A stretch of DNA of 64,000 bases from an uncultured Gammaproteobacteria bacterium (lineage in GTDB: Bacteria; Patescibacteriota; Patescibacteriia; Veblenbacterales; UBA10138), in NCBI GenBank assembly GCA_964348825.1, contig CAYGDX010000003.1:22184-86183 (forward strand), written 5' to 3'. The position numbers were made by a program, and so were the translations under genes. The notes below the pieces were generated by a model. The model did not search any database, was not told where the DNA came from, and saw nothing but the letters and a program-made list of their open reading frames with translations. Below are positions 464 through 61,432 of this stretch, one piece after another (within the stretch, counting starts at the first letter, position 1; each line of letters starts with the position of its first letter).

Positions 464-587
464 AAATTGATGAGCAAAAGTTAAATCTATATATTATTAT
501 ACAACGATACTATAAAAAATGTAAGGACATAAGCTAAAAATTCTAAATCCGAATATCTAAATCCGAAATAAATCCAAATTTCCAAAA

Positions 588-756
588 GTCGTGCCGCCCT
601 GTCGTAGGGTTTGTGCAGAGCGGAAGTCAAACGAGCGTCCGGCTTGGGCGTGTCTGTGGTCGCTTCGCATAGCCCGAACCAGCTCATTTGACGAGCACTG
701 TTCAAACCCGAAGACGAAGGCGGCGACTCTTGCACTACTTCTCTAGAGAAGTAGTA
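588..756 (-). ncRNA. Copy 1 (minus orientation) of a four-copy ~170-nt GC-rich structured repeat. Terminal hairpin ctacttctc-ta-gagaagtag at 735-754.
   Basis: Shares the conserved core gtcttcgggtttgaacagtgctcgtcaaatgagctggttcgggctatgc...gacgctcgtttga...ctctgcacaaaccctacgacagggcggca with the copies at 55758, 58182 and 61263. GC-rich island in AT-rich DNA. ORF 487..735 drawn through it is not conserved as coding. Confidence 0.6.
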
Positions 757-761
757 AAAAA

Positions 762-1274
762 CTAATTACTATCATAAAACATTTGGTAAAAATTGTCTTC
801 CTGCAAACTAGCTAAAAATTCTTCCGGATGCACACTTAATTCTCGTTTTAAATCAACTGGTGAAAACCATTTTACTTCAGCCACTTCTTTGGGCTCAAAT
901 TTTATATCTTTAATATCTGTGTCTAAATTAACAATATAAAATTGTGTAAAATGATTCCATTTGGTTTTAACATGAATTTTAGGTCCAATTTTTAAATCAG
1001 ACAATTTCAAATCCAACCCCAACTCTTCCTTGGTTTCTTTAATTATATTTGATTCATAAGTTTCCCCTTCTTCTACTGTACCAGCCACGGCCGGCCCCCA
1101 CTGCCCCGGATTATGTGATTTATTGTAAGCGCGCCGCGCGAGTAAAAATTCGCCTTTACTATTCGTCAACCACAAAGCCGCTACGCGATAAATAATTTTT
1201 AAATCTTTATCATCGCGCTCTTTTACTCCAATTGGATTATCATTTTCATCTACAATTATAATTTTTGATTTCAT
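762..1274 (-). CDS. NUDIX hydrolase, isopentenyl-diphosphate isomerase-like subgroup
   Basis: Nudix box GTVEEGETYESNIIKETKEELGL. The region RVAALWLTNSKGEFLLARRAYNKSHNPGQWGPAVAG resembles Idi type 1. Confidence 0.7.
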   Translation of the reverse strand: MKSKIIIVDENDNPIGVKERDDKDLKIIYRVAALWLTNSKGEFLLARRAYNKSHNPGQWGPAVAGTVEEGETYESNIIKETKEELGLDLKLSDLKIGPKIHVKTKWNHFTQFYIVNLDTDIKDIKFEPKEVAEVKWFSPVDLKRELSVHPEEFLASLQEDNFYQMFYDSN

Positions 1275-1281
1275 ATTTTTA

Positions 1282-1863
1282 TCACAAACTAATTCCCACT
1301 TGCTTAGCTAAATCTTTCACTAACTCCCAAGGTAGCCCGCGCGCACTATCTTCGCCACCTTCCACTTTTAAATAAAATGGTTTAAGCGATGATTCATCTA
1401 ATTCAAAACCTCCAGCATGACTAAAACATTTGCCTGAGGCAACATAATTATCAATCACTTCGTTTGTTACTGGTCGCCAATACACCTTGGCCACGGCCGA
1501 TCCAACCGCTTGTTCGCCAGAACTTAAATTTGTTACTGCCACGCCATTAATATGCACGGTAGGTTCGTCGCCATAACTTTGTAAAAATCTTTTAGCTTCC
1601 GCTTGGTCAACTGGCTTTTCTCTTAACTCACCTTTATAAAGCACTACTTGATCAGCTGTGATAAGTATAGCTGGTTCGTTGCATTTGATTTTAGATACCA
1701 ACGCATCGGCCTTAGCTTTGGCCAGCGCCATAGTTAATTTTATTGGATCGTCGTCGCGAATAGCTTTTTCATCAATATCAGCTGGCCTAACTTCATAAGT
1801 TAAACCTAATTTATCTAATACTGACTGACGTGATTTAGAAACTGAACCTAAAATAATTTTCAT
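1282..1863 (-). CDS. maf: Maf-like nucleoside triphosphate pyrophosphatase
   Basis: N-terminal ILGS-S-R motif, 193 aa, the typical Maf/YhdE length, with matching conserved layout. Confidence 0.8.
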   Translation of the reverse strand: MKIILGSVSKSRQSVLDKLGLTYEVRPADIDEKAIRDDDPIKLTMALAKAKADALVSKIKCNEPAILITADQVVLYKGELREKPVDQAEAKRFLQSYGDEPTVHINGVAVTNLSSGEQAVGSAVAKVYWRPVTNEVIDNYVASGKCFSHAGGFELDESSLKPFYLKVEGGEDSARGLPWELVKDLAKQVGISL

Positions 1864-1946
1864 AGGATATTAATTTATATTTCAAAATATCGACATTTTT
1901 AAATATCGAAATTTCGATATTTTGATATGTCGAAATATTAAAATTG

Positions 1947-2390
1947 TTATTTGTTTAAAATCTGTTTTAAATATTCATCAAATTCCTGATCTTGATTATT
2001 AACCCGCTTAAACTGTTGGCCTGAAAGCGCACTACCCTTTACTTTATCCACAAAACTCTGAATCAAACGTGACACTTCGTTAGTTAAACCCAAACCTTTA
2101 TTTAATACCGCTTCATTAATAAATCGGCGATCGAATGAAATATAAAGTTGCGCCCTCACTTCACCAGTTTCACCTTTAGCAATAAACAAAGCATCAATGA
2201 ATTCATTTTTAGTGCCCCGGTCAAAACCTTCGGCGATATTAGAAAGTGGTGATATAGCCGCCCGACGAATTTGTCGTTTTAAATCAAAATCTTTAAACTG
2301 AGCTTGGTCGGTAATATCAAAAATAAAATTTGCCAGTTCTCTAGCTCTTTGCCAACAAATCAAATCTTCAAACTTTTGAATTGTCGCCAT
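1947..2390 (-). CDS. Four-helix-bundle protein (23S rRNA intervening-sequence protein family)
   Basis: 147 aa. FEDLICWQRARELANFIF...IAEGFDRGTKNEF is the hallmark of the TIGR02436/PF05635 family. Confidence 0.65.
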   Translation of the reverse strand: MATIQKFEDLICWQRARELANFIFDITDQAQFKDFDLKRQIRRAAISPLSNIAEGFDRGTKNEFIDALFIAKGETGEVRAQLYISFDRRFINEAVLNKGLGLTNEVSRLIQSFVDKVKGSALSGQQFKRVNNQDQEFDEYLKQILNK

Positions 2391-2461
2391 AAAAAATTTC
2401 TTAATATTAATATATTAAAATTTTAAAATGTCGATATCTCGAAATTTCTAAATATTAAACC

Positions 2462-2920
2462 CTACCAACCCAACTCTTTAAGTGCGGCTTCAGCATAAAA
2501 TAAAACATTAGTGCGCAAATCCATCGTGCCCAACTCCTCTTTTGTTGCCCAACGGGCCAAACTTTTCTCGTGATCATTAACTGCACTAGAAATAACATCC
2601 GTACCAGCTTTTGCAAAATATACAAACGTAACGTGTTCATGATTTTCGTTTACCATATTTTTGCCCATATACCTTGGGGCAATGATAGAAAAAAAATTAT
2701 CATCTTTAAATGGGGGTATACTCCCACAAATTTCAATATCTAACCCCACCTCTTCCTTTACTTCACGAATAGCCGCCTCATTCGGATCTTCATCAAGCTC
2801 AATGTGTCCACCAATAGATAACCAATAACCATATTTATCATGCTTACGAAGTAGTATTTTATTTTTATACACAATAAAAACCTCCACCGTAAAATCAATT
2901 TTTTCATGAATGTGTGGCAT
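2462..2920 (-). CDS. NUDIX hydrolase
   Basis: Nudix box GGHIELDEDPNEAAIREVKEEVGLD. Confidence 0.75.
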   Translation of the reverse strand: MPHIHEKIDFTVEVFIVYKNKILLRKHDKYGYWLSIGGHIELDEDPNEAAIREVKEEVGLDIEICGSIPPFKDDNFFSIIAPRYMGKNMVNENHEHVTFVYFAKAGTDVISSAVNDHEKSLARWATKEELGTMDLRTNVLFYAEAALKELGW

Positions 2921-2932
2921 GATAATTACTAA

Positions 2933-3376
2933 TTAACTAATATAAAATTCTTTTTGCAAATAATTTTTTACCATCTTCGCGCTCGGTGGAAAAAGTGGTG
3001 CTGGTAAATTATTTAAATCAAACCACTGCCACTCCACAATTTCATCCGGCTCCATAACTTTTACCTCACCACTAAAATCATCACTAAACATACCTACAGT
3101 AATAAAATGGGCATGTTCATTTTTATCATTGTTTACACACATTACTTTAACCAACTTTAATTCCAAACCCGTTTCCTCCTTTACTTCACGCTTCGCACCT
3201 TCTTCAAACGATTCTCCAAATTCCATTTTACCACCTGGCATAGTCCAACTACCTTCGCCGTGAAGCTCGGAATCGGCTTTAAGTGGATCAGAATGCCGGC
3301 GCCCCAAAAGCACCTTGCCGTCTTTAAAAATCATCACCCCAAACCCGCCTCTAACCTTTTGATTATTGTCTGTCAT
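2933..3376 (-). CDS. NUDIX hydrolase
   Basis: Nudix box PGGKMEFGESFEEGAKREVKEETGLE. Confidence 0.75.
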   Translation of the reverse strand: MTDNNQKVRGGFGVMIFKDGKVLLGRRHSDPLKADSELHGEGSWTMPGGKMEFGESFEEGAKREVKEETGLELKLVKVMCVNNDKNEHAHFITVGMFSDDFSGEVKVMEPDEIVEWQWFDLNNLPAPLFPPSAKMVKNYLQKEFYIS

Positions 3377-3386
3377 ATAAATAAAA

Positions 3387-3803
3387 TTAATTAAGTAAAC
3401 CTCTTTTCAATAAATCGGGAATTATTTTATTTCTAATAATCGGAGAGGTTTTTGGATTAGTTATATAACTTTTATCAATCCAGTGAATATTTTTTACTTC
3501 TGTTGATGCTTTTGGCTCACCAATAATTTTGCCAACATATAATTTAATAGAAACATCTCTATCTGATTTACCAGCCGCAATATCAGTGTATTCATTAACA
3601 TAAACAAGCGAATTTAAATCAACTTCGCAATTTAATTCCTCTTTTATCTCCGCTTTTAACGTCTCAACTTCAGTTGCCTCTTGAAATTGACCGCCGGGCA
3701 TAATGTAATCTGAAGTAACATTACTAGGGTCTTTCTCGCAAACCAGAAACTTGGTTTGATCGTCATTTAAAATTAATAAAGCAATTTTATTATAGTACGC
3801 CAT
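3387..3803 (-). CDS. NUDIX hydrolase (divergent)
   Basis: PGGQFQEATEVETLKAEIKEELNCE Nudix-like box, 138 aa. Confidence 0.6.
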   Translation of the reverse strand: MAYYNKIALLILNDDQTKFLVCEKDPSNVTSDYIMPGGQFQEATEVETLKAEIKEELNCEVDLNSLVYVNEYTDIAAGKSDRDVSIKLYVGKIIGEPKASTEVKNIHWIDKSYITNPKTSPIIRNKIIPDLLKRGLLN

Positions 3804-3816
3804 ACATTAAAATTAA

Positions 3817-4275
3817 TTACTTTTTTAAATACATTTTCACACCTTCTAAAATACCAGAGGTAAAAAACTTTGCGGGCACCACCTTTTCTAATTTAACCCA
3901 CTCATAACCCTTATGCTCACGACTAATCTTAATTTTACCACTTACGTACTTAGCCTCAAAAAATACATACAAAACATGAATCTCTTTTTGCCTACTGCCG
4001 GATTTCTTTGGTAATAAATGCCTCCCCACCGCCACCGGCTTACCCTTCACTATAAATTTTATATTACCTATCTCTTCCCTCACTTCTCTTTCTATAACCT
4101 CCATCAAATCAGTTCTGAATTCATCTGTATCAATTCTACCTCCAGGTAAATCATAAAAACCAGCAAAACTACCACCTTCTACGGCTTTTAGAATCAACAC
4201 TTCGCCGTCTTTATTTTTCAAAAACAACTTTAATGAAATTTGATAAAAATCTTTAGTTTTTTTCATAAGAACCAT
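3817..4275 (-). CDS. NUDIX hydrolase
   Basis: LPGGRIDTDEFRTDLMEVIEREVREEIG Nudix box. Confidence 0.65.
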   Translation of the reverse strand: MVLMKKTKDFYQISLKLFLKNKDGEVLILKAVEGGSFAGFYDLPGGRIDTDEFRTDLMEVIEREVREEIGNIKFIVKGKPVAVGRHLLPKKSGSRQKEIHVLYVFFEAKYVSGKIKISREHKGYEWVKLEKVVPAKFFTSGILEGVKMYLKK

Positions 4276-4278
4276 ACT

Positions 4279-4731
4279 TTAGTTTGATACCACGTATGCG
4301 AGTACGTTAAATTCAGGATCAAAAAATTCTATCATCTCATACTCCGGCCTCACTATAACACGAAGATTGTTTGGACACTTATGTAAATACTCTTTTTTAA
4401 AATTTTCGTAGTTAGTTTCAAAATCATTGCAACCAACTTGTGGACGCTCGGGGTCTGGCTGTCTAATGCGTAAATGCGTGATTTTATTACTTCCAACTAT
4501 AATTGGCACATTCGACTCTGCTCGCGGACCATTATGAAAACTATAGACTTTTCCTATCTCGCCAAGAATTTTAGTTAATAATTCGTACTCTGACTCCGAA
4601 TGTGAAAAAATTGTCAACGACTTAATTGGAAAAGTTTTACCAACTAAATTTTCGGCCAACTTAGATGTTTCAGTGGCAATATAATGTACTGTCTCTAACA
4701 ACCCCTCTTTATTCTGAATTAATTTTTCCAT
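4279..4731 (-). CDS. Hypothetical protein embedded in the NUDIX operon
   Basis: 150-aa ORF with a 4-nt gap to its neighbours. I recognise no family. Confidence 0.4.
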   Translation of the reverse strand: MEKLIQNKEGLLETVHYIATETSKLAENLVGKTFPIKSLTIFSHSESEYELLTKILGEIGKVYSFHNGPRAESNVPIIVGSNKITHLRIRQPDPERPQVGCNDFETNYENFKKEYLHKCPNNLRVIVRPEYEMIEFFDPEFNVLAYVVSN

Positions 4732-4773
4732 TTTTATAAACTACTCAATATTAATCTCTTTATTTATAAAAAA

Positions 4774-5169
4774 TTATTCTATGTCCAACTCCTTAAAACC
4801 AGTAGCGGAGTCAAAAAATCTTTTATACGAGGCGTCATCAAATATTCCAATAACAACCTCTGCTGTAACTTCCACCTTACAACCATCTTTCAAATGACCG
4901 CCGATTACCTTACCATCTTTATCAGAAACAGATATGTGTATATGACAACCATCTTGTGAAATTGTTCCAGTTCCAGAAACAATCTCAAACGCCCCCTCAA
5001 ACTTCTTTACGATTTGATTTTGTGGAGTTGCGCCAGCCATTCTTAAATTAACCTCTTTAAGCGAACCAACAATTGACAATAAAACTCCAGCCTTAATATT
5101 TCTAGATCTATTCTCAATTTCTTCTTTTAAAAATTGATTTGGTTTTAACCGAAATGTTAGTTGCCTCAT
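4774..5169 (-). CDS. PPC/DUF296 domain protein (PD1-like DNA-binding fold)
   Basis: 131 aa. LSIVGSLKEV.LRMAG...FEIVSGTGTIS...HIHISVSDKDGKVIGGHL matches the DUF296 pattern. Confidence 0.5.
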   Translation of the reverse strand: MRQLTFRLKPNQFLKEEIENRSRNIKAGVLLSIVGSLKEVNLRMAGATPQNQIVKKFEGAFEIVSGTGTISQDGCHIHISVSDKDGKVIGGHLKDGCKVEVTAEVVIGIFDDASYKRFFDSATGFKELDIE

Positions 5170-5205
5170 AATATTATTAACTAATGAGATAATTATCTCA
5201 AATTA

Positions 5206-5703
5206 TTATGAATTAAATCTTTGCCACTCAGTTTTTTTACCTTGTCTTTTATTATCAACCATTGCCAATTCATCATAAATACCATCTATCAATTGATAAT
5301 TTTTAGCCTCTTCTAAACTAACCCAAGCAAACTGATCACTTTCTTCAGTTTGTAATATAATTTCACCCGCCACATAATCGGCCATGCACGATATTACCAG
5401 TGACGGACTGCCATCAGCATGAATCGTGGCTAAGCTGGTCACGTATTCAATATTTTCAATCTCAATCCCCACTTCCTCTTTCACCTCACGACGCAGGGTT
5501 TGTTCTAAAACATTGTACCAATAATGCTCTGTATCTTTTGGTAATTGCAAATAATCACTGGTTTCCATTTTACCACCCGGCACTGTCCACATTCCAGGAA
5601 AACGTTTTTTATTTGGTGATCGTCGTGTAATTAAATACTTTCCGTCTTTTACAATAATGGCAGTAATTACTACTTCGTGAAGATATTGATTGGTTGCGTT
5701 CAT
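5206..5703 (-). CDS. NUDIX hydrolase
   Basis: VPGGKMETSDY...LRREVKEEVGIEIE Nudix box. Confidence 0.75.
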   Translation of the reverse strand: MNATNQYLHEVVITAIIVKDGKYLITRRSPNKKRFPGMWTVPGGKMETSDYLQLPKDTEHYWYNVLEQTLRREVKEEVGIEIENIEYVTSLATIHADGSPSLVISCMADYVAGEIILQTEESDQFAWVSLEEAKNYQLIDGIYDELAMVDNKRQGKKTEWQRFNS

Positions 5704-13709: not shown

Positions 13710-14117
13710 TTATTCCAAAGGATTATTATCAGATAAATCAACTGTTGTATCTTTATCTTTTCTAAATTTACGCGCCTTACTTTCAATTTTACCTTTCACT
13801 CGCGCGATTAAGCGTTCTAATTTTGGTACCAGCAAATCAATTGCGGCGTGCATATCGTGGGCGCTAACCTCAACACTAATATCTGGCCCCGGCACTTCAA
13901 GCTTTGCTTCCACGCCGTAAATCTCGCCTGACTTTTGATTTTTTTGAACACCAAGTTCCACTCGAGCCCGAATAATTTTTTTCCAAAATTTTCCAAGCCT
14001 CCCCACCTTTTCTTCTACATACGTTTTAAGTGAAGGCGTGAGTTTAAAATTTTTTCCACTGATGATGATGTCCATAAAAATTTTGTAAGAATAATAGTTT
14101 AGAGCTGTGCCCCGCAC
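13710..14117 (-). CDS. hpf: Ribosome hibernation promoting factor (HPF/RaiA, S30EA family). The true start is probably the internal Met near 14075.
   Basis: MDIIISGKNFKLTPSLKTYVEEKVGRLGKF...EVSAHDMHAAIDLLVPKLERLI is typical HPF. Confidence 0.7.
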   Translation of the reverse strand: MRGTALNYYSYKIFMDIIISGKNFKLTPSLKTYVEEKVGRLGKFWKKIIRARVELGVQKNQKSGEIYGVEAKLEVPGPDISVEVSAHDMHAAIDLLVPKLERLIARVKGKIESKARKFRKDKDTTVDLSDNNPLE

Positions 14118-14147
14118 TGTTCCCGCCTAAGCGAAATCTAGTGCGTG

Positions 14148-14279
14148 GGTAAGAGTTGCTCGCCCCGCGTAGCTCTCGCCGTCGCGTAGCCGCTATGGCG
14201 GAGCACGGTTAGCGAAGTGGGGTCATTCCCGCGGCTTGTCCTGCCGTAGTCTTAACGAAGGAGGAAGGCGGGAATCCAG
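14148..14279. repeat. GC-rich ~130-nt element shared with 56021-56106 (reverse complement). Contains a gtcattcccgc...gcgggaatccag hairpin of the GGATTC/GAATGAC family.
   Basis: gtaagagttgctcgccccgcgtagc...gcgaagtggggtcattcccgc..gcgggaatccag matches rc(56021-56106) gtaagaattgctcgccccacgtagc..gcgaagtggggtcattcccgc..gcgggaatccag. Confidence 0.55.
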
Positions 14280-14456
14280 AAAATAATAATCCGAAAATTT
14301 AAAGTATAGTAAAGTATAAGACGATTTTAACTATAAGGAATATTCATCCAAAACGCAAGCCCTGTGGAAAACTTGACTAAGGTAAGTTCAAAGTAGTAAG
14401 GTAGAAGCAGAAAAAACCTAAAACAACATAGTATTTTTAACAAAAAGGATAATACA

Positions 14457-16712: not shown

Positions 16713-16747
16713 TGGTTAGTAAGAGTAAGGGGATCAATTATTTATCA

Positions 16748-16846
16748 CTTGAACATTAGATCACTAGAGCATTAGAACAATAGAAAAACTTTGGTGTATA
16801 ATAATGTTCTAATGCTTAAGTGTTCTAGTGATAAAGTGAACGATAA
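16748..16846. promoter_or_regulatory. Palindromic 9-mer array element upstream of murB (cattaga-c repeats, AT-rich centre with tggtgtataat, then gttctaatg.. repeats)
   Basis: cattagatcactagagcattagaac-aatagaaaaactttggtgtataataat-gttctaatgcttaagtgttctagtg. Lies 35 nt upstream of the murB start. Confidence 0.6.
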
Positions 16847-17085
16847 ATCTACTTATTCCAGCTTACCATCCCCCTTAATTCTGGTAAATCCGTTAAATTA
16901 TCTAAAAATCCTTTAAATCTTATATTTTTACCAAAATAAGTCAATTATAAATAATTAATTTATGCTAATATTAGCCAAAATATTATATTTATTGTTCCAC
17001 AATCATTGACAAAATCTACTATCCGCGCTATCATAGAGTGTTAACAATTTAAAACCAATTTTCGTTCCTAATGCTTGGGGCGCGG

Positions 17086-18998: not shown

Positions 18999-19054
18999 AA
19001 GCCGACTTTGTATGCAACATATAATATGCAACACCAAGTCGGCTTATTTTTTTA
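18999..19054 (+). terminator. Rho-independent terminator
   Basis: aagccgac...gtcggctt stem followed by T7. Confidence 0.6.
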
Positions 19055-19062
19055 TCTATTTC

Positions 19063-19124
19063 TGGATTCCCCTTTTCAGGGGAATGACATATTGCCAAGA
19101 TTCTTCACTGTGATTCAGAATGAC
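19063..19124. repeat. Two GGATTC..GAATGAC-family hairpins (ggattcccc-tttt-caggggaatgaca; gattcttcactgtgattcagaatgac)
   Basis: Same flanking motif as 17703, 18725 and 56021. Confidence 0.45.
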
Positions 19125-19190
19125 GTTTTGGGATTTGGTCCGCCAGCTGGCGGATTGGAGATTTTTAGAAATTAGAAATTAGATATTAGT

Positions 19191-19241
19191 AATTTTGAGA
19201 GATTGCCATGTCGTTCGCCTTACTCACTCCTCGCAATGACG
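19191..19241. repeat. Gene-3'-end repeat, copy B, immediately after the murC stop
   Basis: aattttgagagattgccatgtcgttcgccttactcactcctcgcaatgacg, preceded by ttagaaattagaaattagatattagt, as in copy C. Confidence 0.55.
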
Positions 19242-20650: not shown

Positions 20651-20789
20651 AATATGATTTAAAATAATTTGTAGAAAATCCGAAATCCTAAACCCTAAAT
20701 CCCAAATAAATCATAAAATTTAAAATCCTAATATATAAACCTTTTTGATTTCAAGTATTGGGATTTATTTAGGATTTAGATATTAGGAA

Positions 20790-21938
20790 TTAGAATTTTT
20801 GAGAGATTACTTCGTCATTCCGCTTCACTTCATTCCTCACAATGACGTCCTTTAATAATCGTAAAACCTCACTAACCACCCTCTCCGCTCCATCTTTCGG
20901 AAACAATTTAGTCAAATTTTCCGCGTACTTTTCCCGGCGATCTGTATCGTTCCAAAGCTCGTTTACAGTAGCAACCAATTGCTCACTCGTCAATCCTAAC
21001 TGATGTACATATACCCCAGCTTGTTTCTTGGCTATTAACTCCGCATTGGCTTCTTGATGTTTACTAGGCAAAGGTATCACGATAATTGATTTACCAAGTA
21101 CACCAAGCTCTGTTAAAAAGGCCATACCCGCTCGTGTAATCACTACATCAGCCACTTGAAGTGCTTTAAAAATAGTTTCTGCTTGAGCTACAAATTCAAG
21201 TGGAAGATAGTGCGAATGTTTAAAAGTATTTTTTAAATTACCTTGTCCCGTAATATGAAGTACTTGAAAATTCTTAACTAGCTCTGGTACAGCTTGCTCG
21301 ACTATGCGATTAAGAGAAACAGCGCCCGTGCCTCCACCAATTACCACTAGAATTGGCAAATGTACATTCAAACCTAATTCATTTTTTAATGTATCGGCCG
21401 GCCGAAGATTTAAAAATTCCGAACGCACTGGATTGCCCACTACCCTACAAACGTTATTTGGAAAATCTTTAATTGATTCCGGAAATGTTACCGTAACTAA
21501 ATTCGCCACTCGCCCTAATATTTTATTAGTTAAAACTACTTTAACATCTTGTTGGTGTACCACTAGTGGTACGCTCATTACCTTAGCAACTAAACCAACC
21601 GGTAGTGCCACGAAACTGCCAGCGGTGAGCACGATATCAACCTGATTTCTTGTAAACCAAATTAAACATTTAATAAAACTAAAAAGGATGAGTACTAAAT
21701 CGGTAATATTTTTTATACTAAAGTAACGTCGCCACTTAGCTGCTGGTAGTTGAATATATTTTTCTACTACATTTTGTACCACCTCTTTTTCTGGACCATG
21801 AGTCGTACCAAACCAAACCACGCGTACCTTACACGCCGGCAATTGTTTTTTTAATTCCGCAAGTACTGAAAGTAGGGGCGTAACCGAACCAAGCGTACCA
21901 CCGCCCGCACAAACAATGGTTAATTCTTTTCGTTCCAT
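20790..21938 (-). CDS. murG: MurG, UDP-GlcNAc:undecaprenyl-PP-MurNAc-pentapeptide GlcNAc transferase. The C-terminal ~17 aa are probably read through a repeat.
   Basis: GT28 fold with glycine-rich N-terminus IVCAGGGTLGSVTPLL, 382 aa; sits between ftsW and murC. Confidence 0.85.
   Translation of the reverse strand: MERKELTIVCAGGGTLGSVTPLLSVLAELKKQLPACKVRVVWFGTTHGPEKEVVQNVVEKYIQLPAAKWRRYFSIKNITDLVLILFSFIKCLIWFTRNQVDIVLTAGSFVALPVGLVAKVMSVPLVVHQQDVKVVLTNKILGRVANLVTVTFPESIKDFPNNVCRVVGNPVRSEFLNLRPADTLKNELGLNVHLPILVVIGGGTGAVSLNRIVEQAVPELVKNFQVLHITGQGNLKNTFKHSHYLPLEFVAQAETIFKALQVADVVITRAGMAFLTELGVLGKSIIVIPLPSKHQEANAELIAKKQAGVYVHQLGLTSEQLVATVNELWNDTDRREKYAENLTKLFPKDGAERVVSEVLRLLKDVIVRNEVKRNDEVISQKF
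20793..20847. repeat. Gene-3'-end repeat, copy C, overlapping the annotated 3' end of murG
   Basis: gaatttttgagagattacttcgtcattccgcttcacttcattcctcacaatgacg. The last 17 codons of the murG ORF (..IVRNEVKRNDEVISQKF) are translated from this repeat. Confidence 0.55.
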
Positions 21939-27558: not shown

Positions 27559-27579
27559 CCAAAATTATGATAAAAAATG

Positions 27580-27718
27580 AAGCTCCGCGCAACAAGTTGC
27601 GTGGTATCAAAGCGAAATTCTTCCGGAGCCAACCCTCCTTCGCTCTGCGAGCTACGGAAGGGTTCTCCCCGCCTTCAGCCTCGCAGTTTACTGCGAGCAT
27701 GAAGGCGAAGGAGAATAA
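27580..27718 (+). other. GC-rich nested-hairpin island inside the pil operon, overlapping the pilO-like start region
   Basis: ctccttcgc..ctgcgag..ggaaggg..ccttc..ctcgcag..gcgaaggag nested inverted repeats, plus cgcgcaac-aa-gttgcgtg. The sequence reads as structured rather than coding. Confidence 0.4.
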
Positions 27719-28208
27719 TAACTGGTTACTTATTACTCTATTAGCCATAACTTTAATTATTCTAGGTGTAATTATGCCGACTATTTTTTGGTTGAGTCAA
27801 AATTTTAATTTTACAAAAAAATTACACACTACTATAACAAATTATTATGCCACCGAACAAACCTACGCTAAAATTTTAACTGACTATAAAAATCATTCAA
27901 CCAGTCAGCAATCTTTAAACAAAATGCTGGCCACCGAACAAACCTTATTGGAACTAGATAAACAACTTAATATACTGGCTAAAAAAAACCAGCTCGACCT
28001 ACAATATAACTGGGGTGAAATAAAAACAGCTACCCTGTCTTATAAAAATTTAAAAATAAGCACCTCTGGCAATGCCGGCGATATTTTAAATTTTGTAAAT
28101 GCCTTAGAAAATTTACCGACTTATATTTCAATCCAAAACTTAGAAATGCAAACTGATTATCCCCTAACTTCCGGTTTTATTTTAACTGAAGTTTATTTAA
28201 AAATATGA
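27699..28208 (+). CDS. pilO: PilO-like membrane protein (start chosen at the internal Met MKAKENNNWLL; the track ORF starts at 27567)
   Basis: Short cytoplasmic N-terminus, one TM segment, coiled-coil-like periplasmic region; position after pilN. Confidence 0.4.
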   Translation: MKAKENNNWLLITLLAITLIILGVIMPTIFWLSQNFNFTKKLHTTITNYYATEQTYAKILTDYKNHSTSQQSLNKMLATEQTLLELDKQLNILAKKNQLDLQYNWGEIKTATLSYKNLKISTSGNAGDILNFVNALENLPTYISIQNLEMQTDYPLTSGFILTEVYLKI

Positions 28209-31151: not shown

Positions 31152-31218
31152 AAATTCACTGTCTAAATACCAAATTTTAGGATTTCGGATTTAGAATTTA
31201 GGATTTTATAATTTTCTT

Positions 31219-42294: not shown

Positions 42295-42404
42295 AAATTA
42301 AGTTCGTAGCTGTTAATCAATAGTTCGTAGAACTAATTACTACAAAAAATCGATAAATTATAAAATTATTTTCGAATTTCGATATTCGGATTTCGAATTT
42401 TTAC

Positions 42405-43655
42405 TTATACTCGCTTAATTTTCGCACCTAAAGAAGCCAACCTTTCATCTAATTTTTCATAACCGCGATCCACATTTTCCACATCATGAATCAAAGTTTC
42501 ACCTTGAGCAATTAGCGCTGCCACAATCAAGGTGGCGCCCGCTCGCAAATCAAAAGTTCTAATCTCTCTGCCATAAAGTGGGGTTGGTCCAGTAATCACC
42601 ACCCGATGTGGATCAGCCACCACTGCACCGGCTCCCATTTTTACAAGCTCTGAAATATGATTTAAACGACCTTCATACATTGGGTCGTGAATTAAAGATG
42701 TGCCAGTGGCTTGAGTAGCGAGTACTGTAAATGGCGCTTGTAAATCAGTGGGGAACCCTGGGTATGGTAAGGCCTGCAATTTAAATGATTTCAACTGACG
42801 ACTGGCCACAACTTTTAGATAATTATTTTGAAGTTCAAAATCTACACCAATTTCTTTCAGTTTTAATAAAATAATAGATAAATGCTCCGGCACAACTGGG
42901 CCAATGGTAATTTCACCGCGGCTTACCGCACCAAGTACTGCCCAAGTACCAATTTCAATAGTATCGGGTATTAAATTATGTGAAGTGCCATGAAGCTCGC
43001 TTACACCTTCAATCACCAAAGTGTGTGTACCAATACCACTAATCTGCGCTCCCATTTTTACCAAAAAATTACATAAATCTTGCACGTGTGGTTCCGCCGC
43101 CGCCAGTTCGATAGTAGTTACTCCGGAAGCTAAAACCGCGGCCATTACAATATTTTCTGTAGCGGTAACAGAAAATTCTGGTAAAATAATTCTGGTACCA
43201 TTTAATTTTTTAGCTTTCAAACAATACGACTCGCCTTGTATTTCTACGGTGGCGCCTAATTTCCGTAAACCATCTAAATGAGCTCCGAGTGGACGATTAC
43301 CAATAATACAACCCCCTGGCTCAGGCAAACTAACTTCACCTAAACGTGCGAGGAGTGGTCCAAACATTAAAACAGACGACCTCATACCTTTTACCAATTT
43401 ACGATCTAAATTGGCTAGATTGACTTCAGCGGCGCTAATTTTTAATTCTGATCCGACCCTAGTACATTTTGCACCCACTTGCTCTAATAATTTTATCATT
43501 TTATCGACATCACTAATTTGTGGAACATTACTAATCACCACTTCATCTTTAGTTAAGAGTGAAGCGGCTAAAATTGGAGTAGCGGCATTTTTCGCCCCCG
43601 GCACATTAATTTGGCCACTTAAAGAGTTGCCACCTTCAATAATTAAGCTACTCAT
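42405..43655 (-). CDS. murA: UDP-N-acetylglucosamine 1-carboxyvinyltransferase MurA
   Basis: 416 aa; EPSP-synthase fold motifs and catalytic-loop region LPEPGGCIIGNRPL. Confidence 0.9.
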   Translation of the reverse strand: MSSLIIEGGNSLSGQINVPGAKNAATPILAASLLTKDEVVISNVPQISDVDKMIKLLEQVGAKCTRVGSELKISAAEVNLANLDRKLVKGMRSSVLMFGPLLARLGEVSLPEPGGCIIGNRPLGAHLDGLRKLGATVEIQGESYCLKAKKLNGTRIILPEFSVTATENIVMAAVLASGVTTIELAAAEPHVQDLCNFLVKMGAQISGIGTHTLVIEGVSELHGTSHNLIPDTIEIGTWAVLGAVSRGEITIGPVVPEHLSIILLKLKEIGVDFELQNNYLKVVASRQLKSFKLQALPYPGFPTDLQAPFTVLATQATGTSLIHDPMYEGRLNHISELVKMGAGAVVADPHRVVITGPTPLYGREIRTFDLRAGATLIVAALIAQGETLIHDVENVDRGYEKLDERLASLGAKIKRV

Positions 43656-55260: not shown

Positions 55261-55725
55261 TTACTCTACACTCGCATTTTTATTTAATTTTTTATCCCAC
55301 AACTTCGTTAAATATAATTCAGCGCGAAAGTTATCTAACTCTAAACTCCACAAAGTTAAAGCCGCGGTTAATAGGGCCACATTTTTCCAAACCAACGAAA
55401 AATCAAGAATAATAAAAAATATTATAAAAGCCAATACGGTGAGAAGTGCTGCAATTTCAGTAGCCAAACCTAAAATAAGCATACTACCTAAAATAATTTC
55501 ACCGATTGATTGATAAAAAACAAATAACTCTGGCTCCATTGGCAGCCAAGTGAACGACGACACTAAACTCACGGCTTCGCTGGCATTGGTGCAAACACCT
55601 AAGGCATTTGAATCGGCGCCAAATTTACTAAGCCCTGACCAAAGAAAAATAAAACCAAGGGATAAACGGAGAATGAGCGGGAGGTAAGGTTTGAGTGTTT
55701 GACGAATTTTAATTGTGCTAATCAT
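55261..55725 (-). CDS. DoxX-family membrane protein
   Basis: LILRLSLGFIFLWSGLSKF signature, 154 aa. Confidence 0.6.
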   Translation of the reverse strand: MISTIKIRQTLKPYLPLILRLSLGFIFLWSGLSKFGADSNALGVCTNASEAVSLVSSFTWLPMEPELFVFYQSIGEIILGSMLILGLATEIAALLTVLAFIIFFIILDFSLVWKNVALLTAALTLWSLELDNFRAELYLTKLWDKKLNKNASVE

Positions 55726-55757
55726 ACTAAGTGTTATGAATTAAGAATTAGTTTTAT

Positions 55758-55946
55758 TTTGTTACTTCTTTAATAGAAGTAACCATGAATCGCAGGCCAC
55801 GGTCTCCAAGTTTGAACAGTGCTCGTCAAACGAGCTGGTCAGGCCTATGCACAGCGACCACAAACACGGCCTGACCGGACGCTCGTTTGATTCCCTGCCT
55901 ACCGGCAGGCAGGCGCTCTGTACAAACTTTCCGACATGGCCGCACA
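55758..55946 (+). ncRNA. Copy 2 of the four-copy GC-rich structured repeat. Terminal hairpin gttacttc-tttaata-gaagtaac at 55760-55782.
   Basis: Core ...gtctccaagtttgaacagtgctcgtcaaacgagctggtcaggcctatgc..ggcctgaccggacgctcgtttgattccctgcctaccggcaggcaggcgctctgtacaaactttccgacatggccgcac. The last ~70 nt are identical to copy 3. Confidence 0.6.
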
Positions 55947-56020
55947 ACTTTTGGGAATTGGGATTTTTAAAAATTAGTTATTAGTTGTTAGTGATTTTCC
56001 CCGCCACAGCGGGGCAAGCT

Positions 56021-56106
56021 GGATTCCCGCCGGAGTTTACCCCGCACCAAGATGCGGGGCGGGAATGACCCCACTTCGCCAAGGCTACGTGGGGCGAGCA
56101 ATTCTT
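56021..56106. repeat. GC-rich element homologous (reverse complement) to 14148-14279; contains a ggattcccgcc...ggcgggaatgac hairpin
   Basis: See the 14148 feature. Confidence 0.55.
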
Positions 56107-56437
56107 ACTCTTTCTTGACCTCTTTAATTGCTACTTCCCGTACGACTTTAGTTAACTGCCGATCAAATTTTTCCAATCGCACAAAAATTTTAAACAATAA
56201 ATAAAAAACTAACAGAATTGACAAATAAATTATTAAATCACTCCCCCGCCCCACACCAACTACATCGGCCATATAGGAAGCAATTTTTGGTTCCAAACCA
56301 ACCACCCCAATTACTAGCCATAATAAAAGCCATTCCCAAAATTCTGAACGTTTTATTTCTTGGGCGCGCAGGCGGCTAAATAATCGCCACCAAACGATTA
56401 ACACGACTAACAAGATAATAAACTGGATTAAAGACAT
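56105..56437 (-). CDS. DUF2304-like small membrane protein
   Basis: 110 aa, 3 TM helices, directly downstream of a GT2 polyprenyl-phosphate sugar synthase, the usual DUF2304 context. Confidence 0.5.
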   Translation of the reverse strand: MSLIQFIILLVVLIVWWRLFSRLRAQEIKRSEFWEWLLLWLVIGVVGLEPKIASYMADVVGVGRGSDLIIYLSILLVFYLLFKIFVRLEKFDRQLTKVVREVAIKEVKKE

Positions 56438-56586
56438 AAAAAATTAAAATGTAAATATAAAAATGGAAAATGACAGATTAAAATTTAAAATGAATTGTAA
56501 CCTATTTAATATCTAAGGAAAAATTATTATCTAATTATTTTTTAATTTTTCATTGTCATTTTTATTTTTGATTTTTTATTTTTAAA

Positions 56587-57282
56587 TTATTTAAACATTC
56601 TCCCTACCACCAAATCTTTTACAATCTTCGCCGCTGGCCATTTGCCTTGTTTACTACCCTTCAAACTACTTTCAGTATAGCGCACTGTAACTGGTACTTC
56701 CACCCAAGTAATATTACAACGTTTTATCTCATCAATTACTTCTGAACTAAAAGCCATTAAATCCTGTCTAAAATTAAATTTTTGCCAAGCGGAACTGGTG
56801 AAGGCACGAAAACCATTGTGAGCATCGGTTAATTTAATACCTGAAAAAATCCAAGTAAAAATAATAGCTAGTTTTAAAGTTAGATAGCGAAGTTTTGGCA
56901 TATCAATCACTTTTCCCAAAAAACGCGACCCTAAAGCTACGCTTGGTACACCAAGTTGTAAAGCGCCAACTAATCGTGAAATATCATTGGCTTCAAATTG
57001 ACCATCAGCATCAAAATGAATTATGATATCGGCGCCGCGAGATACGGCATAATCTGAACCAGTAACAAGTGCCGCCCCATAACCGCGATTTACTAAATGC
57101 TGCAAAACAATCGCGCCCGCGGAAGTGGCAAGGTTAGCTGTATCATCATCTGAACCATCATCAACCACTACCACTTTATCAACTATCTTTTTCACTTTTA
57201 TAACCACGTCTGCAATATTTTTAGCTTCATTTTTAGCTGGAATAATTACCCACGTATTCATTTTCCTTGCTCCTTCCACCAT
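56587..57282 (-). CDS. GT2 polyprenyl-phosphate glycosyltransferase (DPM1/GtrB-like)
   Basis: VIIPAKNEAKNI...VVVVDDGSDDDT and catalytic D-x-D region. Confidence 0.8.
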   Translation of the reverse strand: MVEGARKMNTWVIIPAKNEAKNIADVVIKVKKIVDKVVVVDDGSDDDTANLATSAGAIVLQHLVNRGYGAALVTGSDYAVSRGADIIIHFDADGQFEANDISRLVGALQLGVPSVALGSRFLGKVIDMPKLRYLTLKLAIIFTWIFSGIKLTDAHNGFRAFTSSAWQKFNFRQDLMAFSSEVIDEIKRCNITWVEVPVTVRYTESSLKGSKQGKWPAAKIVKDLVVGRMFK

Positions 57283-58163
57283 TTAAAAGTTAAACGTAGT
57301 CCTTCTATAAGCGGCACCTGAGGCGACCAATTTAATTGAGCTTGTGCTTTATCTGAATTAAACACTGAAATTAGCGCTTCACCCGAATCAAGCGCAATGT
57401 AATTTACTTTTGGCACTTCACCTATAACTTGCCCAATAGCGAGCGCTAATTCTCGGAAACTAATACCCTCACCAGTTGATAAATTATAAACTCCTTGACC
57501 AAATTGTAAAGCTTGAAATATTCCTTGTGCCGCATCAGTTACATACAAATAATCACGCACTGATTCGCCTTGACCTGGTAGAAGTAATGGTTCTGACTCC
57601 AGTGCCGCTTTAACAAAGCGCGGCATAGTGCCAGCTAATTGACGTGGGCCAAATATGCGAGTCAAACGCGTAATAACCTGCGGCAGACCATAATTTTCCG
57701 CATAATAATTTAAATAACCCTCGGCCGTTACCCGTGATAAAGCATAAAATGAAGTTGGCTCAATATCATCATTTTCTTTAATTGGTTTGTCACTCGACTT
57801 ATAAACTGCCAAGCTTGAAACATATAAAAATTTTTTTATTTTTAAATCTTTTAAGGCCGATAGTAAATTAACTGTGCCAACCACAGCTACGCTTAAATCA
57901 TGACTTGGATTATTATTCGCAGCTGAAACAACATTCACGCCAGCTAACTGACAAACATAATGTGGTGAAATTTTTTTTATTAAGGCGGATAGTTTAGGTG
58001 AACAGATATCAAGTAAATGAAATTTAGCCGCCTTTGGTACAAATACTTTGCGTCCAAAAGATAAGTCATCTATAACATGAACTTCAAAACCAGCCCGCAA
58101 AGCTATTTCAGCTAAATGCGAACCAACAAAACCAGCGCCGCCAACAATTAGTACTTTAAACAT
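57258..58163 (-). CDS. NAD-dependent epimerase/dehydratase (SDR)
   Basis: VLIVGGAGFVGSHL Rossmann motif, YALSR (YxxxK variant). Confidence 0.7.
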   Translation of the reverse strand: MFKVLIVGGAGFVGSHLAEIALRAGFEVHVIDDLSFGRKVFVPKAAKFHLLDICSPKLSALIKKISPHYVCQLAGVNVVSAANNNPSHDLSVAVVGTVNLLSALKDLKIKKFLYVSSLAVYKSSDKPIKENDDIEPTSFYALSRVTAEGYLNYYAENYGLPQVITRLTRIFGPRQLAGTMPRFVKAALESEPLLLPGQGESVRDYLYVTDAAQGIFQALQFGQGVYNLSTGEGISFRELALAIGQVIGEVPKVNYIALDSGEALISVFNSDKAQAQLNWSPQVPLIEGLRLTFKWWKEQGK

Positions 58164-58181
58164 AGTTAATATAATACTTTT

Positions 58182-58368
58182 TTGTTACTTCTTTAATAGA
58201 AGTAACCAAGAATCGCGGCCTTCGTCTCCAAGTTTGAACAGTGCTCGTCAAACAATCTGGTCAGGCCTATGCCGAGCGACCACATACACGCCCAAGCCGG
58301 ACGCTCGTTTGATTCCCTGCCTACCGGCAGGCAGGCGCTCTGTACAAACTTTCCGACATGGCCGCACG
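58182..58368 (+). ncRNA. Copy 3 of the four-copy GC-rich structured repeat. Terminal hairpin at 58184-58206.
   Basis: ttgttacttctttaatagaagtaacca..gtctccaagtttgaacagtgctcgtcaaacaatctggtcaggcctatgc...ggcgctctgtacaaactttccgacatggccgcac. Confidence 0.6.
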
Positions 58369-58423
58369 ACTTTCTATGATTTATTTTTCTAATTTCGAAT
58401 TTAGTGCTTCGGATTTGGAATTT

Positions 58424-59563
58424 TTATTTTATATACTTCTTCAACTCTTTCACCATATCCAACTTCTCCCAAGTAAACCCCTCACCCATGCGGCCAAAAT
58501 GACCATAAGTAGCGGTGGCTTGATAAATCGGCCGACGTAATTTTAAATGTTCAATTATCTCATACGGTGTCAGTGGAAAATGATTTTCAATAATTTTTAT
58601 TATTTTGTCATCTGGTAACGCACCGGTACCAAAAGTATTTACTGCCAAACTAACAGGCACAGGTTCACCAATCGCATAAGCTAGTTGTACTTCGCACTCG
58701 CGAGCTATTCCTGCCGCTACTAAATTTTTCGTGATATAACGGGCCGCGTACGAAGCTGAACGATCAACTTTGGAAGCATCTTTACCCGAAAAACAGCCAC
58801 CACCATGATGCGCCCGACCGCCATAAGTATCTACGATTATTTTGCGACCTGTCAGGCCAGTATCGGCCTCCGGCCCGCCAATTACAAATCGACCGGTAGC
58901 ATTAATAAAAACTTTGGTTTTATTATCAAATAGTAACCCGCAAATTTTTTTTATTACTTCTTTTTCTAATTCCGCTCGCAATTTAACTAAAGATACATTT
59001 GGATCATGCTGGGCCGCTAGTACCACACTAAAAATTCTTTTTGGTTTGCCACTTTCATATTCCACCGCCACCTGACTTTTGCCATCGGGCCTGAGACCTT
59101 TCACAATCCCCTTCTTTCTTACCTCAGCTAAACGCATAGCTAACTTATGCGCCAACATAATTGGTAAAGGCATAAATTCCGGAGTTTCAAGGCAAGCATA
59201 ACCAAACATCAATCCTTGATCACCCGCACCAATATTTTTTGCTGAACGCACTACGCCACGTTTAATATCCACCGACTGTTCGTGTAGCGCCACCAGCACA
59301 CCAGCGTCAGAAGCATCAATTCCAAAATCAGGATTGGTATAACCAATCTCACTTAAAACTTGCCGCGCAATTTTTTGCACATTCACATAACCGCGCGTTG
59401 ACACTTCACCGCCCACCAACATCACACCAGAAGTAACATATGTTTCAATGCCAGCACGAGTAAAGGGATCTTGGCGTAATAATTCATCTAAAATTGCGTC
59501 GGATACTTGATCACAAATTTTATCGGGATGACCCTCGGTAACTGATTCTGAAGTATAAATCAT
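58424..59563 (-). CDS. metK: S-adenosylmethionine synthetase
   Basis: [33 protein letters not shown] and DTYGG motifs. Confidence 0.95.
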
Positions 59564-59565
59564 AT

Positions 59566-59650
59566 CATTAAAACACTAGAACATTAAAACATTAGAACAT
59601 TATTAATAAAAATCTTGTTTCTATGATCTAGCGATCTAATGTTCTAATGT
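59566..59650. promoter_or_regulatory. Palindromic 9-mer array element beginning 3 nt upstream of the metK start codon
   Basis: cattaaaacactagaacattaaaacattagaacat-tattaataaaaatcttgtttctatg-atctagcgatctaatgttctaatg. Confidence 0.55.
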
Positions 59651-59658
59651 AAATATTA

Positions 59659-60678
59659 TTAAGCCGACAACTTCGGCCCCAGCACATACTCATGGGCATT
59701 GCCATAATTAATCGTAGAGCGTAAACCATCTTCTAGCTTAGTTAAAGGAAACCAACCTAATTGCTCTTTTGCTAAAGTAATATCGGGCACACCCTGCCTT
59801 GCTAAATAAGGCAAAGCCGCGGCCTCTTCAAAAACAACCCTAGCACTAGTTAAATCAATTATCATCTGCGCAATATCTTTCATTTTGTAGGGTTCTGGCG
59901 AGCCAAGATTAAATACACCAGATGATGTATGATCCATTAATTTTAACAAGCCATCTACCATATCGCTAACATAACAATAAGTAGAAATTTCCTCGGGTGA
60001 ACCATAAATAGTAAGTGGTTGATTAGTTAAAGCATGAGCAATAAAATCAGGAATCATACGACCATCTTGTAGTTTCATACGCGGACCGAAAGTATTAAAA
60101 ATCCGAGCAATACGAAAATCGACTGAGCGATAATTACCATAATTAACTACCAAACTTTCGGCAAAACGTTTACCTTCATTATAACAACTGCGCGGTCCCA
60201 CTGGATCAATTGAACCCCAATCTGATTCTTTAAATTTTTGATTCTGAACTGGCTCACCATAAATAGAAGCGGACGAAGCGTGTAGAAATCTGGCCTTATA
60301 TTTCACGGCTAAATCCAAAAGATTACGCGTGCCCTGCGAATTAGTAAGCAATGTTTCAATTGGCAAATGATGATATTCTTTAGGACTGGTCGGACAAGCT
60401 AAATTATAAATTTGTTGCAAGCCCTGATACTTAACTTTAAATACTTCAAGTTCAGGCAGAGCTTCTAAATCAATTGGTTCAATTAAATCGTGCTTAATAA
60501 ATTTAAAATTTTGATTTTGCATTAACAAATCAATATTTTCTTCCTGACCGGTAATAAAATTGTCTATACAAATTACATTATTTTTTTCAAGCAAAGCGTC
60601 ACATAAATGCGAACCAATAAAGCCAGCTCCACCCGCTACCAGCACATTACTGCGATCTAAAATTTTTGTATAAGACAT
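59659..60678 (-). CDS. UDP-glucuronate decarboxylase (UDP-xylose synthase)-like SDR
   Basis: VLVAGGAGFIGSHLCDALL..VICIDNFITG, YNLACPTSP, YNEGKR (YxxxK). Confidence 0.7.
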   Translation of the reverse strand: MSYTKILDRSNVLVAGGAGFIGSHLCDALLEKNNVICIDNFITGQEENIDLLMQNQNFKFIKHDLIEPIDLEALPELEVFKVKYQGLQQIYNLACPTSPKEYHHLPIETLLTNSQGTRNLLDLAVKYKARFLHASSASIYGEPVQNQKFKESDWGSIDPVGPRSCYNEGKRFAESLVVNYGNYRSVDFRIARIFNTFGPRMKLQDGRMIPDFIAHALTNQPLTIYGSPEEISTYCYVSDMVDGLLKLMDHTSSGVFNLGSPEPYKMKDIAQMIIDLTSARVVFEEAAALPYLARQGVPDITLAKEQLGWFPLTKLEDGLRSTINYGNAHEYVLGPKLSA

Positions 60679-60763
60679 AATTAAAATAGATATGAATAAG
60701 CTCTTTTATTATAACAAAAAAAGGCCAAATTTGAAACCGGCCAAAATTTTCCCCCTAATTTCA

Positions 60764-61180: not shown

Positions 61181-61262
61181 AGAGTAAATATATTATCTAA
61201 CAAAACCATGAGTCGGTATAGAAAATTTAAAACAAAAATTTTAAATATCAAAATATTATTTT

Positions 61263-61432
61263 TACCACTTCTCTAGAGAAGTGGTGCAAGAGTCGCCGCC
61301 TCGGTCTCCGGGCTTGAACAGTGCTCGCCAAACGAGCTGGTCAGGCCTATGCCAAGCGACCACAACACGGCCTGACCTTAAGCTCGTTTGCCTTGCGCTC
61401 TGTACAAACCCTACGACAGGGCGGCATTCGTT
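61263..61432 (+). ncRNA. Copy 4 of the four-copy GC-rich structured repeat. Terminal hairpin ccacttctc-ta-gagaagtgg at 61265-61284; lacks the cctgcctaccggcagg sub-hairpin.
   Basis: ccacttctctagagaagtggtgcaagagtcgccgcctcggtctccgggcttgaacagtgctcgccaaacgagctggtcaggcctatgccaagcgaccacaacacggcctgacc..gctcgtttgccttgcgctctgtacaaaccctacgacagggcggca. Same subfamily as copy 1. Confidence 0.6.

Follow-up and report, generated by a model that had tools for sequence, protein, structure and literature searches.

A lineage-restricted structured intergenic repeat, probably mobile, behind a NUDIX hydrolase gene in a patescibacterial genome

Introduction

Patescibacteria have tiny, streamlined genomes that are thought to be poor in repeats. 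In the 64-kb stretch of DNA analysed here (the window, along which all positions without a locus label are counted), the stop codon of a NUDIX hydrolase gene (TAG on the minus strand, 762-764) is separated from the start of a small membrane-protein gene by a GC-rich block, with up to 64% GC (in 80-nt windows) at 570-741 compared with ~36% for the window. What is this block, and what does it do between the two genes? An earlier note had described it as copy 1 (c1) of a structured repeat, the only copy in minus orientation, and had suggested that its terminal hairpin might act as a terminator or attenuator that separates the NUDIX operon from the downstream membrane-protein gene.

The copy 1 locus

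The features of the locus are listed in Table 1, together with the other copies in and next to the window. The terminal hairpin is present behind the NUDIX stop codon, and the coordinates of the locus in the earlier note were accurate, but the gap between hairpin and stop codon is 6 nt (six A's on the plus strand, 756-761) and not 7 nt. This run of T's in the reading direction of the element is either a remnant of the target site or else comprises the first bases of the element. On the other side, the membrane-protein gene begins at 463, as had been proposed. The microrepeats reported beside c1 are real, with AAATCC at 545, 559 and 570 in 'ctaaatccgaa' units, but the tract extends over ~541-587 rather than 520-590. 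Beyond it, the promoter-like region at 496..525 is nearly 100% conserved in the sister species described below; this site delimits c1 without belonging to the element.

Table 1. Features of the c1 locus and positions of the other copies in and beside the window
Feature	Position	Strand	Description
c1, whole element	588-755	-	T-run, 22-nt 5' hairpin and 140-nt rod-like stem-loop
T-run TTTTTT	756..761	-	separates hairpin1 from the NUDIX stop codon (762-764)
5' hairpin (hairpin1)	734..755	-	ACTACTTCTCTAGAGAAGTAGT, perfect 22-nt palindrome, AU-rich stem
Linker GCAAGA	728..733	-	joins hairpin1 to the rod
Rod-like imperfect stem-loop	588..727	-	140 nt, five helices; RNAalifold and pair counts, with which the c1 MFE structure agrees
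Rod closing stem	719-727 with 588-598	-	closes as GTCGCCGCC/GGCGGCACGAC
Conserved mid-rod motif	692-705 opposite 611-622	-	TTGAACAGTGCTCG opposite CGCTCTGcACAA
Variable helices 4 and 5	672-691 with 627-649	-	
Apical loop	650..671	-	TATGCgaAGCGACCACAGACAC, 22 nt, best-conserved part of the family
3' flank	534..587	-	TTTT (584-587), then GGATTT-type microrepeat tract (AAATCC on the plus strand)
Promoter-like site	496..525	-	CTTACA-18-TATAAT, outside the element; serves the small membrane-protein gene downstream
Spurious ORF	487..735	-	82 aa; crosses element, tract and promoter region
c2	~55751-55963	+	BLAST and covariance model
c3	~58174-58385	+	BLAST and covariance model
c4	~61254-61445	+	BLAST and covariance model
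c0	L017 11882-12073	as c1	~1.2 kb beyond the left end of the window; L017 is a longer contig of the same organism

The ORF that runs across the element had been called an artefact, and this holds. Elsewhere in the family the frame is lost to indels of 1 nt and 20 nt and ends at varying places, and translations of the element ORFs, used as a profile, retrieved nothing credible among 5.8 billion proteins (one match, E = 8.4). With a frame that is unconserved among copies and no homologue better than E = 8, it was rejected as a protein-coding gene. The ORF on the opposite strand (591..746) is likewise an artefact, with 1-nt and 20-nt indels elsewhere in the family and no homologues.

Upstream of c1, positions 762-5703 hold five NUDIX hydrolase paralogues in a 5-kb co-directional cluster, interleaved with genes for Maf, a 23S_rRNA_IVP-family protein, a PCC-domain protein and a HIT protein.

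A family of repeats with a common fold

Searches by BLAST and with a covariance model uncovered further copies of the element, and these, together with strong covariation among them, bear out the description of c1 as a copy of a structured repeat. There are 16 full copies: four in the window, one just past its left end and 11 in the MAG of a sister species. Within the window c1 is indeed the sole minus-oriented copy, because the three other copies (c2-c4) all read on the opposite strand. Each copy has a core of 163-168 nt, after removal of an optional 20-nt insert, that comprises the 5' hairpin and the 140-nt rod with its conserved apical loop and mid-rod motif; pairwise identity between cores is 66-96%.

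The distribution of the family is narrow. Apart from 2 chance matches, an exact-pattern scan of 185,579 species genomes located the motif in a single organism besides that of the window, a Patescibacteria MAG (H52-bin160_1) that carries it on nine of its contigs. Model searches of the loci of this MAG, including its MetK locus (L022), recovered 11 full copies and one truncated copy. The MAG is closely related to the organism of the window, with ~87% nucleotide identity in shared genes and 93% identity in the MetK protein. An exact-pattern scan of the JGI metagenome collection gave only 5 chance matches, a viral contig collection gave no match with the stem and loop pattern and none with the loop alone, and BLAST against phage genomes gave no match to the repeat. 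Since the next relatives (72-73% MetK identity) are without the element and these wider scans came back empty, the family appears to be restricted to a narrow clade. For comparison with chance, a 41-nt probe found a match in 0 of 100 shuffles, and the loop motif has 4 matches against 0.21 expected. Independent assemblies (Logan, ENA) of the same organism end in or at copies (L018 at 7551, L019 at 1082 and L021 at 2951), and the repeat thus fragments MAG assemblies of the lineage.

Several observations point to selection on the fold. The rod comprises 40 pairs, and across the family copies 96.8% of 599 pair cells are standard pairs (RNAalifold and pair counts). Two-sided changes are seen at 20 of the 40 pairs (63 cells), with none of 500 shuffles as good, and when the rod partners are slid against one another as a control, pairing falls to 25-43%. 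Helix 4 alone occurs as CAAAC/GTTTG, CAAAT/ATTTG, TCCGC/GCGGA, CGGAC/GTCCG and GGCAC/GTGCC. Hairpin1 comes in three types, all paired (ACTAC/GTAGT, ACCAC/GTGGT and GTTAC/GTAAC), and that of L002, the orthologue of c1 in the sister species, differs from the c1 hairpin by a two-sided compensatory change. Set against these variable stems, two elements hardly change: the apical loop, TATGCnnAGCGACCACAn(n)CAC, is nearly invariant across copies and the mid-rod motif, TTGAACAGTGCTCG / CGCTCTGTACAA, essentially so. The folding energy of c1 is -78.6 kcal/mol (z = -6.0), and the other strand, at -78.5 kcal/mol (z = -5.6), is of similar stability. Taken together, these results suggest that the structure of the repeat is under selection.

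The earlier note had also grouped c1 with c4 in a subfamily. The two do have in common a type-a 5' hairpin and a CGCC/GGCG closing stem, both lack the 20-nt insert, and their cores are 84% identical, but their apical stems differ. The nearest relative of c1 is L008, a non-orthologous copy from the sister species (90%), whilst that of c4 is L002, the orthologue of c1 (also 90%). The family is a mosaic with no clean subfamily split.

A diverged paralogue lies at ~1895-2050 of L020 on the minus strand, ~4.7 kb beyond the right end of the window and antisense to its neighbours. Its stem sequences are unrelated to those of the family, its apical loop (TATGCAAAGCGGCCACAACAC) is the same, and it has a 5' hairpin of its own before it and TTTTT after it. 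The predicted fold has an energy of -60.9 kcal/mol (z = -3.7), and at 1919-1959 the near-identical apical loop caps an otherwise unrelated hairpin. A covariance model of the loop alone detected no additional diverged members in 271 kb including outgroups.

Insertion, turnover and exchange between copies

How the copies came to lie where they do can be read from a single operon, with the gene order S8 peptidase - GtrA - epimerase - MetK - epimerase - GT2 - DUF2304 - DoxX. In the outgroups L026 and L031 (72-73% MetK identity) the genes of the same operon are 2-7 nt apart, and the sites of c2, c3 and c4 hold no element. In the window, three of its junctions are occupied by c4, c3 and c2; in the sister MAG c3 is present and the c4 and c2 junctions are empty (73 and 46 nt). 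Comparison of the orthologous junctions identifies the copies as insertions into formerly tight gene junctions. Elsewhere, c1 is common to the sister MAG (as L002), and the MAG copies L007 and L008 occupy loci that have no copy in the window, so that the six comparable loci divide into two shared, two window-only and two MAG-only. Because presence and absence differ in this way between the window and the sister MAG, multiple subtypes must have been inserted after the two species split. In the spacer where the sister species has its L007 copy, the window carries an AT-rich inverted repeat instead (CACTAGAGCATTAGAACA ... TGTTCTAATGCTTAAGTGTTCTAGTG, ~16720-16900).

At least four T's are found directly 5' of hairpin1 in all 16 copies, with unrelated sequence farther upstream, and TTT directly follows the 3' end of the rod in 11 of 15 independent copies (10-11 of 15 if TTT(T) is counted). 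T-runs on both sides are compatible with insertion into a T-run and its duplication. Comparison of filled with empty orthologous sites revealed no exact ends and no target duplication; the ends of the insertions are not base-exact because the intergenic spacers are rearranged and diverged.

Copies also exchange parts. Compared with its otherwise identical orthologue in the sister species, c3 carries a 20-nt palindrome insert and a 29-nt patch from another subtype (window 58257-58300 versus L022 6869-6912), which leaves helix 5 mismatched. Patch and insert aside, the two species agree at 100% identity over c3 and the tract 3' of it, compared with only 89% nucleotide identity for MetK. Modules are thus exchanged between copies, and in c3 a 29-nt conversion tract has broken helix 5.

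In being short, multi-copy and non-coding, and in its presence/absence variation, the repeat resembles a MITE. MITEs are further marked by terminal inverted repeats that match a parent IS and by a target-site duplication; here the sole inverted repeat is the rod itself, with hairpin1 lying outside it, T-runs flank the copies on both sides, and no parent IS was seen in ~145 kb.

Other small repeats in the same spacers

The microrepeats beside c1 are a separate family of intergenic tracts and not peculiar to c1. At 19130-19200, 20676-20800, 31170-31210 (ahead of the L27 gene) and 42360-42405, AAATCC/GGATTT tracts stand with no element beside them, and a GGATTT-type tract is also present at the empty c4 site of the sister MAG. 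Each of the four window copies is followed on the 3' side by such a tract, always turned the same way relative to the element, which suggests a preferred insertion context, and the GGATTT-type tract at c1 is probably insertion context rather than part of the core. Tracts of this type, such as TTTAGGATTTCGGATTTAGAATTT, are found again and again in intergenic spacers and run in either orientation. Near-identical 35-nt stretches directly follow the stop codons of the S8 peptidase gene and of the gene ending at 42405, and the ENA assembly breaks at the 42.4-kb tract.

The 20-nt palindrome, CCTGCCT(A/G)CCGGCAGGCAGG, behaves as an independent mini-insertion in the internal loops of the rod, on the 5' or the 3' arm. 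It is found in the window at 55889-55909 (in c2) and 58311-58331 (in c3, being missing from the orthologous MAG copy), in L002, L006 and L007 (~1100), and twice in the copy at L010 4317-4544. It also occurs alone, among other places between the MetK and epimerase genes of a distant relative with 72% MetK identity (L030 4757-4776). Other GC-rich palindromic units, among them GTCATTCCCGC...GCGGGAATC, CCCCGCCACAGCGGGG and CTGGATTCCCCTTTTCAGGGGAATGACA, are clustered at 55976-56126, 14089-14285, 27577-27722 and 19044-19089 in the window, at L008 2440-2470 and upstream of the copy in L009; the cluster at 27577-27722 falls within the start of ORF 27567..28208.

Known families and partner genes

No match to Rfam 15 was obtained at the gathering threshold anywhere in the window. 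When the threshold was relaxed to E ≤ 10 for 400-900 and 55600-61600, weak matches appeared (13-18 bits), none of which recurred across copies. Pfam annotation of ~90 kb of the window genome and ~55 kb of the MAG loci identified housekeeping genes only, including those for cell-wall synthesis, SecA/SecDF, NUDIX, BipA, TGT/QueA and the CCA-adding enzyme; in these ~145 kb around copies no transposase, recombinase, reverse transcriptase or TnpB-like protein was seen.

Two further identities were considered and rejected. An integron attC array, in which sites of one orientation set apart promoterless cassettes beside an integrase and conservation is limited to the R'/R'' cores, is at odds with the mixed orientations, with the syntenic housekeeping genes (MetK, epimerases) that lie between copies and with conservation of the apical loop rather than the ends, and a resemblance to SRP RNA and 6S RNA was set aside on architecture and copy number.

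Orientation and transcription

Relative to their neighbouring genes, eight copies are in sense and six in antisense orientation. GC skew is uniformly negative across the window, so the orientation of the copies is unrelated to replication direction, and a replication-linked orientation was rejected on this ground. Mixed orientation also argues against strand-specific cis-regulation and against strictly strand-biased single-strand transposition.

Both c1 and c0 follow the end of a transcription unit and precede a promoter-like site, and c2-c4 are antisense inside an operon. No conserved promoter was found in or beside the copies, the upstream flanks of which are unrelated. The repeat is probably co-transcribed with its neighbours. 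A scan of positions 300-1000 with the intrinsic-terminator consensus returned no terminator-like site, and the only terminator-like feature in the NUDIX direction is the entire rod followed by UUUU (584-587). This 3' T-run is absent in L002 and in 4 of the 15 independent copies, so that the family as a whole has not conserved termination. At c1, however, the rod with its UUUU is the only strong structure in the stretch that separates the NUDIX operon from the promoter of the next gene, and may in practice mark where the transcript ends.

What kind of element is it?

The reading that we favour, at a probability of roughly 60%, is that the repeat is a lineage-restricted, non-autonomous and structure-constrained mobile intergenic element of the same kind as MITEs, bcr1, ERIC and REPINs. 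To judge from the loci compared, it has been inserted repeatedly and in either orientation into the short spacers of housekeeping genes beside T-runs, often beside GGATTT-type tracts. Copies, or the source copies from which they derive, would be selected to retain the fold and the two sequence motifs. Such selection implies a trans-acting factor, encoded elsewhere, that reads the folded single strand (DNA or RNA); candidates would be a transposase, a recombinase or a host protein. The element itself appears to be promoterless and to be transcribed by read-through, with a very stable predicted structure on either strand. By analogy with repeats of the REP, ERIC and bcr type, its likely effect would be that of a 3'-end or processing barrier within mRNAs.

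Three observations sit less easily with a mobile repeat. Conservation peaks in the apical loop and the internal motif and not at the termini, which is more like a functional RNA than a classical MITE; the L020 paralogue has retained architecture and loop on stems of unrelated sequence, as if under selection for RNA or protein binding; and no mobilising enzyme was found in the ~145 kb examined, nor a clean pair of filled and empty sites with exact ends.

The first two of these observations lend weight to the view that the copies are genes for a structured small RNA, in which the loop and mid-rod motif bind a protein or target, the rod and U-run bring about self-termination, and dispersal is secondary. 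An invariant loop and internal motif between covarying helices is a pattern typical of RNA, TTT(T) stands directly behind the rod in most copies, and the L020 paralogue has the same layout of hairpin, rod, loop and T-run whilst lying antisense to its neighbours. A near-fixed U.G at the base of helix 5 and hairpin1 wobbles in c0 and L006 also fit transcription of the 'forward' strand. Small-RNA genes would, however, be expected neither to do without a conserved promoter in or upstream of the copies nor to lack the T-run in 4-5 of them, the orthologue of c1 included. The sporadic non-standard cells of the rod (G.U 5, A.C 7) display no strand preference, the copies turn over rapidly between species with ~87% nucleotide identity, a broken helix is tolerated in c3, and Rfam offers no match that recurs across copies even at E = 10. 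On balance we consider this explanation unlikely, although it is the main rival.

It is less probable again that the repeat is a mobile structured RNA module, the loop and mid-rod motif of which would bind a dedicated protein that uses and spreads the RNA, with the L020 paralogue as the ancestral functional gene. One form that this could take is a hitherto undescribed patescibacterial system of mobility or regulation that depends on RNA or is guided by it.

Descent from an IS200/IS605-type element, mobilised as a single strand by a Y1 transposase, is very unlikely. The repeat would then be a relic or derivative, a PATE with a guide-RNA (omega-RNA-like) scaffold inserted 3' of a T-rich target. 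Insertion immediately behind a T-run, a hairpin at one end and selection on a single-strand fold all speak for this, and omega-RNA-like scaffolds are similar in size to the repeat. PATEs are recognised by subterminal hairpins that resemble each other at the two ends, by insertion with a strand bias 3' of one short, fixed motif and by an accompanying Y1 and/or TnpB. In the repeat, the two ends are dissimilar, orientation is unbiased within one replichore (2 versus 3 copies, with uniform GC skew), no TnpA, TnpB or IscB gene was seen in the ~145 kb examined, and there is no Rfam match of the omega-RNA type.

Least probable of all is the suggestion that the hairpin at 734-755 works as an intrinsic terminator or attenuator that sets the NUDIX operon off from the membrane-protein gene: it does lie 6 nt past the stop codon in an intergenic region with no other terminator-like site, and the next gene has its own promoter-like site downstream, but the U-run of the transcribed strand precedes the hairpin in the NUDIX direction, so that this is no canonical terminator, GCAAGAG follows an AU-rich stem, the terminator scan was empty, and the same hairpin is the standard 5' module of every copy, including antisense copies within an operon, where it precedes start codons by 10-70 nt.

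Significance

A 64-kb stretch of DNA harbours four copies of an element whose structure is supported by covariation, and at least two other kinds of small repeat besides. The element invaded formerly tight operons after two sister species had split and, being so recent an arrival there, is a clean marker of recent genome dynamics. On the practical side, the repeat causes assembly breaks and spurious gene calls in MAGs of the lineage. The combination of an invariant loop with covarying helices defines a candidate for a new protein-binding nucleic-acid structure. The main interest of the family lies in its unusually clear covariation, its invariant loop and its recent activity in a streamlined genome.

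Comparison with known systems

Intrinsic (rho-independent) terminators, marked by a G+C-rich stem with a U-tract straight behind it on the transcribed strand, and SPRITE-type terminator-like repeats have in common with the repeat a stable hairpin near a stop codon and, in most copies, TTTT behind the rod. They differ in that the T-run of hairpin1 is on the wrong side, the rod is ~140 nt long, its T-run is not universal and half of the copies are antisense to genes.

REPs and REPINs are GC-rich, non-autonomous extragenic palindromes, mobilised by RAYT transposases, whose structure is kept during within-genome evolution (PMC3116915, PMC3337134), and the repeat resembles them in its GC-richness, its long hairpins, its non-autonomy and the maintenance of its structure. 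REPINs are inverted doublets of ~25-nt REPs with a GTAG or CGTC tag at one end (PMC3733652). Membership would be indicated by such a tag ending a palindrome of 20-40 nt, an inverted doublet and a RAYT gene in the genome. No RAYT was seen in the DNA examined here. In the present family doublets are lacking, and GTAG is internal (on the reverse strand, inside the rod) and not invariant, being lost in c2 and c3, which read GTCGGAAAG; membership was rejected for these reasons.

The ERIC/IRU and YPAL repeats of enterobacteria are MITE-like imperfect palindromes of 127-168 bp, found in transcribed intergenic regions in both orientations, that form rods in mRNA and can alter its stability depending on orientation (PMC3184786). 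Here too a rod-forming element is found in both orientations, and is probably co-transcribed. The ends of ERIC are inverted repeats flanked by TA (PMC3184786), whereas the repeat has a hairpin at one end only and T-runs, and its interior is conserved rather than its termini.

The bcr1 repeats (group A of the Bacillus cereus repeats) behave as mobile elements with no known transposase and TTTAT-associated insertion (PMC6542083), and are ~155 nt in size (table in PMC3184786). Both are lineage-specific, non-coding interspersed repeats, bcr1 with tens of copies, and the T-runs or TTATTTT that flank copies here recall the T-rich motif of bcr1. There is no sequence similarity between them and the host phylum is another one, and no TTTAT duplication was seen at the sites compared here. 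The repeat further stands out by its GC-richness against an AT-rich genome and by its conserved 22-nt apical loop. It is a member of neither bcr1, ERIC/YPAL nor REP/REPIN, and is without a matching Rfam family. By analogy, it would work most like bcr1 of the Bacillus cereus group: the family is new and restricted to its lineage, and its probable kind, the non-autonomous mobile intergenic repeat, is already known.
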